A model generated the notes under the pieces. The model was not told the origin of the DNA and did no database searches. It saw only the letters and a program-made list of their open reading frames with translations. A DNA stretch of 60,048 bases, from contig CAZMFA010000001.1 of assembly GCA_964565515.1 (NCBI GenBank), forward strand, positions 1 to 60,048. Reading direction: 5' to 3'. Numbering within the stretch: the first letter of the stretch is position 1; each line of letters opens with the position of its first letter. This stretch comes from an uncultured Candidatus Saccharibacteria bacterium (GTDB lineage Bacteria > Patescibacteriota > Minisyncoccia > UBA6257 > GWB1-50-10). A program made the position numbers and the translations under genes. Positions 9,184-9,810 of this stretch are shown piece by piece.

Positions 9184-9273
9184 TTTTCCCGACTTCTTTT
9201 TCCCCGACCCCTTTCCCGTTCGAATTCTGCCGGAAACACCTTGATTATTTTGTATTTAAAAATTCTTAGTCTG

Positions 9274-9346
9274 TGCCCCCAGCAGGATTCGAACCTGCGA
9301 CCCACTGCTTAAAAGGCAGGTGCTCTACCAACTGAGCTATAGGGGC
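9274..9346 (-). tRNA. tRNA-Lys (anticodon UUU)
   Basis: Reverse complement folds as a cloverleaf: acceptor GCCCCTA/TGGGGGC, D arm GCTC-AGTTGGTA-GAGC, anticodon loop CTTTTAA, T arm GCAGG-TTCGAAT-CCTGC. CCA is not encoded. Confidence 0.9.
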
Positions 9347-9390: not shown

Positions 9391-9419
9391 TTGACGCCCC
9401 GCTGTTTTTTTTGTAGTAT
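9391..9419 (+). promoter_or_regulatory. Sigma70-like promoter for tRNA-Asn (TTGACG-N17-TAGTAT)
   Basis: Divergent from the tRNA-Lys promoter. Followed by leader hairpin GCCGGTAAA-tga-TTTACCGGC (9426..9446). Confidence 0.6.
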
Positions 9420-9457
9420 GGTAAAGCCGGTAAATGATTTACCGGCAGGCAGGTAAT

Positions 9458-9713
9458 TCTCCGGTAGCTCAGCGGTAGAGCGGCTCCCTGTCGAGTAAGG
9501 CAGCGTTGCGCAGCAATGCGCAAATGAAAATCGGGCTAATTCGGGGAACTCTCGCAAGAGACAATCCCGAGCTAAGTTCTCGCCTATGGCGGGATAAATG
9601 TGTAGAGACTATATACCCGGGTCCCCACGTGGGACATGAGATAGTCCAGACCTTTTGGTGACAGAAGGACAACTGTAAGGAGATGGTCGTAGGTTCGATC
9701 CCTACCCGGAGAG
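9458..9713 (+). tRNA. tRNA-Asn (anticodon GUU) interrupted by a 184-nt intron between positions 35 and 36
   Basis: Exon 1 (9458..9491): TCTCCGG TA GCTC AGCGGTA GAGC G GCTCC CTGT. Exon 2 (9676..9713): TAA GGAGA TGGTC GTAGG TTCGATC CCTAC CCGGAGA G. The spliced loop CUGUUAA and discriminator G73 are as in bacterial tRNA-Asn. Confidence 0.85.
9492..9675 (+). ncRNA. Group I intron (IC3-like, no ORF)
   Basis: 5' splice site follows a U that pairs as U.G with the IGS GGCAG (9499..9503). P2 is TTGCGCA-GCAA-TGCGCAA. P4 is TCGGGG/TCCCGA, with A-rich J4/5. P5 is TCTC-GCAA-GAGA. P6 is CTCGCC-tat-GGCGGG. The core string GUGUAGAGACUA is present. P7 is GACTA/TAGTC, P8 is GTCCC/GGGAC, and the terminal G is at 9675. 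Confidence 0.8.
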
Positions 9714-9717
9714 CACT

Positions 9718-9810
9718 AAACCCCCGACCCCCGTCTGGGACACCCTCGGGTTTCCCATCAGCCGCACTTCCGTGCGGCTCCTTCCAAGATGGGGGTTTAG
9801 TTTTTCTTTT
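9718..9810 (+). terminator. Structured trailer and probable terminator after tRNA-Asn
   Basis: Outer stem AAACCCCC/GGGGGTTT (9718..9725 / 9791..9798) encloses the 8-bp hairpin AGCCGCAC-ttcc-GTGCGGCT, followed by AGTTTTTCTTTT. Confidence 0.4.

Follow-up and report, generated by a model that had tools for sequence, protein, structure and literature searches.

A compact, IC3-like group I intron predicted to split tRNA-Asn(GUU) in a CPR/Patescibacteria bacterium

The split tRNA-Asn(GUU) gene

The tRNA-Asn(GUU) gene of this CPR/Patescibacteria bacterium is very probably split by a compact, IC3-like group I intron that would be removed by the standard group I pathway; its catalysis, autonomy and essentiality are inferred. 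The window, which is the whole stretch of 60,048 nucleotides that was analysed, carries the split gene at positions 9458-9713 on the + strand, with the interruption between anticodon positions 35 and 36. The intron (9492-9675, +) is 184 nt long and has no ORF. It was identified through Rfam RF00028, covariation and a minimum free energy (MFE) fold. The RF00028 (Intron_gpI) match lies at 9482-9668 (+) and scores 59.0 bits, where the gathering score is 50 (E 1.9e-12), and it extends over model positions 1-253 of 253. A first-pass annotation of the same DNA had placed a 184-nt group I intron at 9492-9675, splitting tRNA-Asn(GUU) at 35/36, and had named a search with this covariance model as a check. 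The full-model match above the gathering score bears out that proposal and its exact coordinates. When all of the window was scanned with permissive Rfam settings, no second intron or other credible non-coding RNA came up.

The 5' exon (9458-9491, +; 34 nt) contains the acceptor strand, the D arm, the 5' side of the anticodon stem and the loop nucleotides C32, U33, G34 and U35, the last of which is the U-1 of the splice site. The 3' exon (9676-9713, +; 38 nt) supplies U36, A37 and A38, the 3' side of the anticodon stem, the variable loop, the T arm, the acceptor strand and the discriminator G73. When joined, the exons form a canonical 72-nt tRNA-Asn(gtt) with the loop CUGUUAA, U1-A72 and a discriminator G, as called by ARAGORN on the spliced sequence. 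U1-A72 and G73 are identity elements for asparagine. The spliced sequence therefore shows the features by which a bacterial tRNA-Asn is recognised, namely a cloverleaf with anticodon GUU, U1-A72 and G73. The same canonical tRNA, loop and discriminator had been predicted at first pass, and the call on the joined exons agrees. The 3' CCA is unencoded, as the discriminator G is followed by CAC (9714-9716), and because of this the tRNA depends on a CCA-adding enzyme. No second tRNA-Asn was found elsewhere within the 60-kb window; as proposed at first pass, splicing would be essential if the genome had just this one tRNA-Asn gene.

Possible transcription signals were found on both sides of the gene. 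A promoter-like TTGACG-17-TAGTAT is located at 9391-9419 (+), some 39 nt upstream of where the tRNA begins, and a terminator-like hairpin followed by a T run is located downstream, at about 9776-9805 (+). Both are weak sites from a consensus scan alone, and they would be consistent with separate transcription of the gene. The window also has a perfect hairpin of 9 bp, GCCGGTAAA-TGA-TTTACCGGC, at 9427-9447. It follows the -10 element of the promoter-like site and precedes the 5' end of the tRNA, and it would thus belong to the 5' leader.

Anatomy and conservation of the intron fold

Intron nucleotide i corresponds to window position 9491+i, and all of the elements below are on the + strand. P1 (9488-9503) is formed by exon nucleotides C32, U33, G34 and U35 together with intron C1 (9488-9492), which pair with the internal guide GGCAG (intron G8-G12, 9499-9503) across the loop GAGUAA. 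The wobble that marks the 5' splice site is U35 (9491).G9 (9500). This pair is U.G in 89 of the 89 distinct family sequences, and all four exon pairs of P1, the wobble included, are invariant in them. The pair on the intron side covaries (CG 56, AU 6, GC 4, UA 2, UG 5). An exon ending in U, held by a U.G pair with the guide GGCAG, had been described at first pass and is seen here at U35 and 9499-9503. P2 (9506-9523) has 7 bp, 9506-9512 with 9517-9523 (intron 15-21 with 26-32), a GCAA tetraloop at 9513-9516 and compensatory changes in 7/7 pairs.

The 5' strand of P3, UCGGG (9531-9535, intron 40-44), pairs with CCCGG (9616-9620, intron 125-129), and the latter strand closes the P3/P7 pseudoknot. 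Three of the five P3 pairs covary and 99.6% of the alignment cells are paired. P4 (9541-9546 with 9565-9570, intron 50-55 with 74-79) is near-invariant and 99.3% paired, and it encloses J4/5 (AAC), P5 and J5/4 (CAA). P5 (9550-9553 with 9558-9561, intron 59-62 with 67-70) has a GCAA loop at 9554-9557, and 3/4 of its pairs covary. P6 (9571-9572 with 9600-9601, intron 80-81 with 109-110) is invariant, and P6a (9578-9583 with 9589-9594, intron 87-92 with 98-103) covaries at all six pairs.

P7 is made of the 5' strand GAGACUA (9605-9611; intron 114 and 116-120, with A115, or A9606, bulged) and the 3' strand UAGUCC (9642-9647, intron 151-156), with J8/7 (AUGAGA) just 5' of the latter; 99.6% of its cells are paired. 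The core string GUGUAGAGACUA is located at 9600-9611 and matches the Azoarcus and cyanobacterial seeds. The family shows no variation at G9605, the bulged A9606 or G9607-C9646, all of which are the same in the Azoarcus seed, and G9607-C9646 is predicted by homology to be the guanosine-binding pair. P8 (9621-9635) has 5 bp, 9621-9625 with 9631-9635 (intron 130-134 with 140-144), and covaries at 5/5 pairs. P9.0 (9648-9650 with 9672-9674, intron 157-159 with 181-183) covaries at two of three pairs and encloses P9 (9651-9657 with 9662-9668, intron 160-166 with 171-177), which covaries at all seven and is capped by a GUGA tetraloop at 9658-9661. The intron ends with omega-G at 9675 (intron position 184), a terminal G that had been noted at first pass, and the last intron column is an invariant G in the family alignment.

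The helices of the window consist of standard pairs throughout, except for one A-A mismatch in P9.0. The intron is compact and has P2 and GNRA loops L2 and L9. P2.1, P5abc, P7.1/7.2 and P9.1, as well as an ORF, are absent. These are the features of subgroup IC3, and the intron can be described as IC3-like, which is supported by the core string in common with the Azoarcus seed and by about 63% identity to it. GNRA-capped P2 and P5 helices, an A-rich J4/5 and the P3, P7 and P8 pairings had all been pointed out in the first-pass annotation, and every one of these details is present.

Without constraints, the MFE fold (193 nt) recovers P1, P2, P3, P4, P5, P6a, P8 and P9 at -67.1 kcal/mol (z = -3.3), and none of 200 shuffled controls folds as well as the intron. 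Conservation was explored in a MAFFT alignment of 90 family sequences (89 distinct), including the window. The alignment was not fitted to a structure, and the structure of the window was projected on it. In this alignment 94.7% of the cells are paired. The controls have fewer, with 77.8% after shuffling of the columns and 33-47% after the 3' partners were shifted by 1-3 columns. Compensatory changes were found in 34 of 56 pairs (12 helices), and the covariation score is 0.475 versus 0.155. P2, P6a, P8 and P9 show covariation at every pair, and P4, P6 and P7 are nearly invariant. The use of an exact 27-nt core pattern to gather the homologues forces invariance on the core columns, so that P4, P6 and P7 are uninformative in this respect. 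Covariation and the MFE fold give a group I core of P4-P6 and P3-P7-P8-P9 with the P3/P7 pseudoknot.

The tetraloops also show a pattern that is expected of tertiary contacts. L2 is a GNRA loop in 90/90 sequences and L9 in 88/90. When L9 is GYAA (GUAA or GCAA), P5 has CC:GG (65/65), and when L9 is GNGA, P5 has CU:AG (2/2). This pattern obeys what is said to be the classical GNRA-helix rule of Michel and Westhof. The window has GUGA in L9 and CU:AG in P5, where its nearest relatives, L002 and L092, have GUAA and CC:GG. Such a concerted change argues for selection on the three-dimensional fold in the lineage of the window. A second tetraloop-helix contact, L2-P8, is compatible with the sequences and is probably formed.

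Splicing pathway and alternative readings

The proposed pathway is that of other group I introns. Once the pre-tRNA is transcribed, the intron would fold from P1 to P9.0, and the P3/P7 pseudoknot would be stabilised by the L9-P5 contact and probably by the L2-P8 contact. An external guanosine held at the P7 G-C pair would attack at the phosphate that follows U35, where the U35.G wobble marks the site. Omega-G (9675) would then enter the same pocket, and the 3'-OH of U35 would attack the 3' splice site. The exons would be joined, restoring the anticodon loop CUGUUAA and the anticodon GUU, and the intron would be released. The 3' exon would probably be held by the anticodon stem and not by a P10 helix. 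The Anabaena tRNA intron is known to need pairing of its exons in the anticodon stem (Zaug et al. 1993, as cited in PMC3984707), and it is from that intron that the role of the stem is proposed here. A search for P10 gave nothing convincing: the L1 loop GAGUAA and the 3' exon UAA can form at most 1-2 pairs, and these are unconserved.

The architecture is that of the Azoarcus tRNA-Ile(CAU) intron, which is capable of robust autonomous self-splicing at 205 nt (PMC13168695). In addition, the conserved GNRA loops L2 and L9 with their covarying P5 receptor indicate tertiary stabilisation by RNA only, and no protein gene tied to the intron is conserved beside the locus. For these reasons it is unlikely that the intron is real and removed in vivo, but non-autonomous, with a protein cofactor or chaperone needed for want of peripheral stabilising domains. 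Some features do point in that direction. The intron is compact at 184 nt, with P5 of only 4 bp, P8 of 5 bp and none of the peripheral domains, and P10 is not evident. Small introns that lack peripheral domains can require high Mg2+ or the help of proteins.

The locus could also be imagined as a decaying relic, that is, a tRNA pseudogene with a dead intron, asparagine being decoded by another gene elsewhere in the genome. The mismatch in P9.0 would fit such decay, but the catalytic-core positions that are invariant in the family, as well as the helices, are all intact in the window, and the concerted compensatory change in L9/P5 implies ongoing selection on the fold. The syntenic relative L002 moreover has the very same exon sequences, although its proteins share only 76-92% identity with those of the window. 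CPR bacteria have small genomes, usually with single tRNA genes, which was counted against a relic as well. This reading is thus highly improbable.

An intron-less orthologue or a second copy was sought in metagenomes with a 48-mer that spans the predicted exon junction. The 48-mer was found as a contiguous, uninterrupted tRNA-Asn gene on seven metagenome contigs (L125-L131, including Hainich groundwater samples), with a GC content of 35-47% and without protein or DNA similarity to the window. These contigs are uninformative about the genome of the window. It appears that intron-free and intron-bearing forms of near-identical tRNAs coexist in nature.

The position of the junction decides the identity of the host, and among the shifted junctions only CUGU/c...g/UAA combines U-1 with a terminal intron G; it gives Asn(gtt) and places the intron after loop nucleotide 4. 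A tRNA-Thr(UGU) host with the intron between positions 33 and 34 deserves next to no credence: ARAGORN with -i gives tRNA-Thr(tgt) i(33,184) for the window and tRNA-Thr(tgt) for many homologues, and TG at both junctions allows the 2-nt shift, but this call, the same insert moved 2 nt to the left, was rejected because its intron would end in C and not in omega-G, its 5' splice site would fall at a U-A Watson-Crick pair and not at the invariant U.G wobble, the tRNA body shows the asparagine hallmarks U1-A72 and G73, and the Asn junction sequence is known from the contiguous tRNA-Asn genes.

The intron family, its hosts and known introns

The tRNA-Asn split by a group I intron, which is the preferred reading, has many counterparts. 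One genome per GTDB species was scanned with the core pattern AATCCCGAGCTAA-N(10-40)-GTGTAGAGACTATA, and at least 119 loci were found. Among the matches listed, nearly all of the loci with informative names are Patescibacteria/CPR metagenome-assembled genomes (MAGs), and the named hosts are Woese-, Gottesman-, Davies-, Roizman-, Levy-, Ames-, Curtiss-, Yanofsky- and Jorgensenbacteria and Saccharimonadales. Hosts were assigned by a junction rule consisting of CTGT, omega-G, the anticodon stem, the T arm and the acceptor stem. By this rule there are at least 90 loci, including the window, with 79 in tRNA-Asn(GUU) and 11 in tRNA-Asp(GUC), all at 35/36. The sample is biased and defined by the search pattern, and the counts are minimum values and no estimates of prevalence. 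The loci missed by the rule have 5' halves that are Asn-like or Asp-like. No Tyr or His host was found among the pattern-defined loci listed. Apparent Tyr(GUA), His and Ala hosts were present in the raw calls, and all of them became Asn or Asp once the junction was fixed. Another approach, in which all U/G junction pairs were enumerated and the products judged by ARAGORN, was too permissive and gave many spurious isotypes per locus.

The introns of the family are 178-227 nt long among the matches listed, the shortest having 178 nt, and 72 of 90 are shorter than 205 nt. The introns in tRNA-Asp have a mean identity of 0.76 among themselves versus 0.68 to those in tRNA-Asn. Eight pairs of loci were observed in which the intron subfamily occupies both tRNA-Asp and tRNA-Asn within one MAG (L069/L120, L083/L088, L067/L093, L006/L023, L004/L045, L024/L090, L082/L106 and L021/L118), and the Asp and Asn introns of the same genome are merely 66-74% identical. 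This low identity, together with the closer similarity of the Asp copies to each other, suggests an old move between tRNAs that share CUGU and not recent copying.

The genes in the window encode HisRS, FtsA, FtsZ, a class II ribonucleotide reductase (RNR), a VIT/rubrerythrin protein, an RNHCP protein and FolB. Relatives were compared with these by tblastn against the fetched loci. The amino acid identities are 92% for RNR, 83% for the VIT protein and 76% for the RNHCP protein in L002 (MAG WY5.bin131); 83% for FtsA, 79% for FtsZ and 84% for RNR in L097; and 78% for the RNHCP protein and 71% for FolB in L092 (Patescibacteria FK_Sedi_B_Bin.358). The FtsZ of a Jorgensenbacteria MAG shares 66% identity with that of the window, and the relatives place the window in a Patescibacteria genome. 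The sole match in an exact search with the FtsZ of the window was a 1.4-kb Logan contig of SRR12217121, which carries an identical gene. RNR, the VIT-like gene, the RNHCP gene, tRNA-Lys and the intron-bearing tRNA-Asn are syntenic in L002, L097 and L092, with 82-89% intron identity. Judging from gene order and intron position, which are kept in these relatives, the intron is vertically inherited at a syntenic locus. The tRNA-Lys(UUU) gene (9273-9346, -) is divergent and located 111 nt upstream of tRNA-Asn. This tRNA pair stands together with the RNR, VIT-like and RNHCP genes in L002 and L097.

Introns at this site have been catalogued before. Williams (bioRxiv 2020, 10.1101/2020.01.27.920355) describes a scan of about 80,000 bacterial genomes with Rfam and ARAGORN, by which the four classical classes (Leu.3Ug, Arg.5Ug, fMet.2Ug and Ile2.5Ug) were extended to 21. 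The seeds in its supplement include Pam37.Asn.4Ug, Wba81.Asp.4Ug and Mba143.Tyr.4Ug, which share one site. The Asn.4Ug class is defined computationally there, and the window has the properties of that class: a tRNA-Asn host, an intron after the fourth loop nucleotide, U-1 and omega-G. The first-pass annotation had named Leu(UAA), fMet, Ile(CAU) and Arg(CCU) as known bacterial hosts and had considered an Asn(GUU) host with a 35/36 insertion as apparently unreported. The latter claim is wrong in view of the class Asn.4Ug and of at least 79 further tRNA-Asn loci in public genomes. Within this class, which was catalogued by computation and is abundant in CPR bacteria, the intron of the window is an ordinary member. 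The locus leaves the known range of group I intron sites in tRNAs unchanged, and it adds one well-supported member to a large family of very small CPR group I introns.

The seeds differ in how closely they resemble the window. The Asn.4Ug seed, Pam37, has the same Asn(GUU) host, 35/36 site, U-1 and omega-G, but its intron is 273 nt long with extra insertions. Only about 49% of positions match in a global alignment, and because of this Pam37 is assigned to another intron lineage at the same site. In contrast, Wba81.Asp.4Ug belongs to the same subfamily as the window. It is locus L025 (CP011214.1), in the tRNA-Asp of Ca. Woesebacteria GW2011_GWF1_31_35. It has P1 CUGU/C with GGCAG, J3/4 CUAAUUCGGGG, GAGCUAA, GUGUAGAGACUAUAUACC, AGAUAGUCC, the helices and the 35/36 site in common with the window; the differences are the tRNA-Asp(GUC) host and a length of 196 nt versus 184 nt.

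The IC3 intron in tRNA-Ile(CAU) of Azoarcus sp. BH72 resembles the window in its anticodon-loop location, the lack of an ORF, the helices P1-P2-P3-P4-P5-P6/6a-P7-P8-P9 and the GNRA loops L2 and L9. The GUGUAGAGACUA / AUAGUCC core is also shared, and global alignment gives about 63% identity. However, the Azoarcus intron is inserted at 36/37 (Ile2.5Ug) and not at 35/36, and the intron of the window is 21 nt shorter. J3/4, P6 and J7/3 are CUAA, GC/GU and UAUA in the window versus AAA, GCC/GGU and GAC in Azoarcus. The cyanobacterial tRNA-Leu intron also has an IC3-type core, including GUAGAGACUA, an anticodon-loop location, U-1 and omega-G, but its site is 34/35, it is about 250 nt long and it belongs to another host lineage. 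That GUGUAGAGACUA is common to the Azoarcus tRNA-Ile and cyanobacterial tRNA-Leu introns had been proposed at first pass, and the seed alignment of Williams (2020) confirms it.

The length of 184 nt had also been singled out as lying below the 205 nt of the Azoarcus intron. This is numerically true, but it does not distinguish the locus, since the 72 family members noted above are shorter than 205 nt too, and introns of 194 and 196 nt are already found among the seeds of Williams (2020). Small size characterises the family as a whole and is not peculiar to this locus, and it would be a record only if self-splicing were demonstrated. No splicing test of any family intron was found in the literature searched. 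If the family self-splices, it would supply natural ribozymes that are smaller than the Azoarcus model by 10-15%.

It is possible, if somewhat doubtful, that this CPR intron lineage contains the smallest natural autonomous self-splicing group I ribozymes and that, fixed long ago and passed on vertically, it is therefore essential to the production of tRNA-Asn (and tRNA-Asp) in a large part of Patescibacteria. If that were true, the 4-nt CUGU target common to tRNAs with GUN anticodons would explain the spread between Asn and Asp by reverse splicing. The requirement for guanosine would also couple the decoding of Asn and Asp to the supply of GTP.

Genes of this kind are a problem for annotation. 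With default settings on the unspliced sequence, ARAGORN did not call the tRNA-Asn gene, and the neighbouring tRNA-Lys(UUU) was its sole call; tRNA-Thr(tgt) was obtained in intron mode and tRNA-Asn(gtt) from the spliced sequence. tRNAscan-SE 2.0 is not designed to detect group I introns in tRNAs (PMC8450103). In circularised genomes, tRNAs were found to hold group I introns and were hence hard to detect (Lui et al. 2021, PMC8172020). Since the standard finders miss or mislabel the gene, such genomes are wrongly scored as having no tRNA-Asn or an odd tRNA-Thr. Among the loci listed, the intron mode of ARAGORN sets the junction 2 nt too far 5', and it thereby turns about 30 Asn hosts into tRNA-Thr(tgt) and several Asp hosts into tRNA-Ala(tgc). 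In some loci (for example L007, L011, L012 and L014) the Thr.2 and Asn.4 junctions both have U-1 and omega-G, and the U.G wobble in P1 alone decides between them. The published class Thr.2Ug, whose seed Pgr210 also has P1 cuguc...GGCAG, may include such miscalls.

L004-L006, L008, L017, L020 and about 35 other loci come from MAGs that have this CPR-type intron and CPR-like tRNAs, but whose records bear the names 'uncultured Gammaproteobacteria' or 'uncultured Pseudomonadales' (TPA_asm; one example is OZ246397.1, a chromosome of 615 kb). It seems that these names are placeholders or wrong labels. In IMG/VR, four contigs classified as viral (L121-L124) carry the 27-nt core pattern, with flanks that do not fit the junction rule for tRNA-Asn or tRNA-Asp. 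They may represent group I introns carried by phages, or CPR DNA that was wrongly classified. In L124, an apparent 3' half of a tRNA is present downstream.
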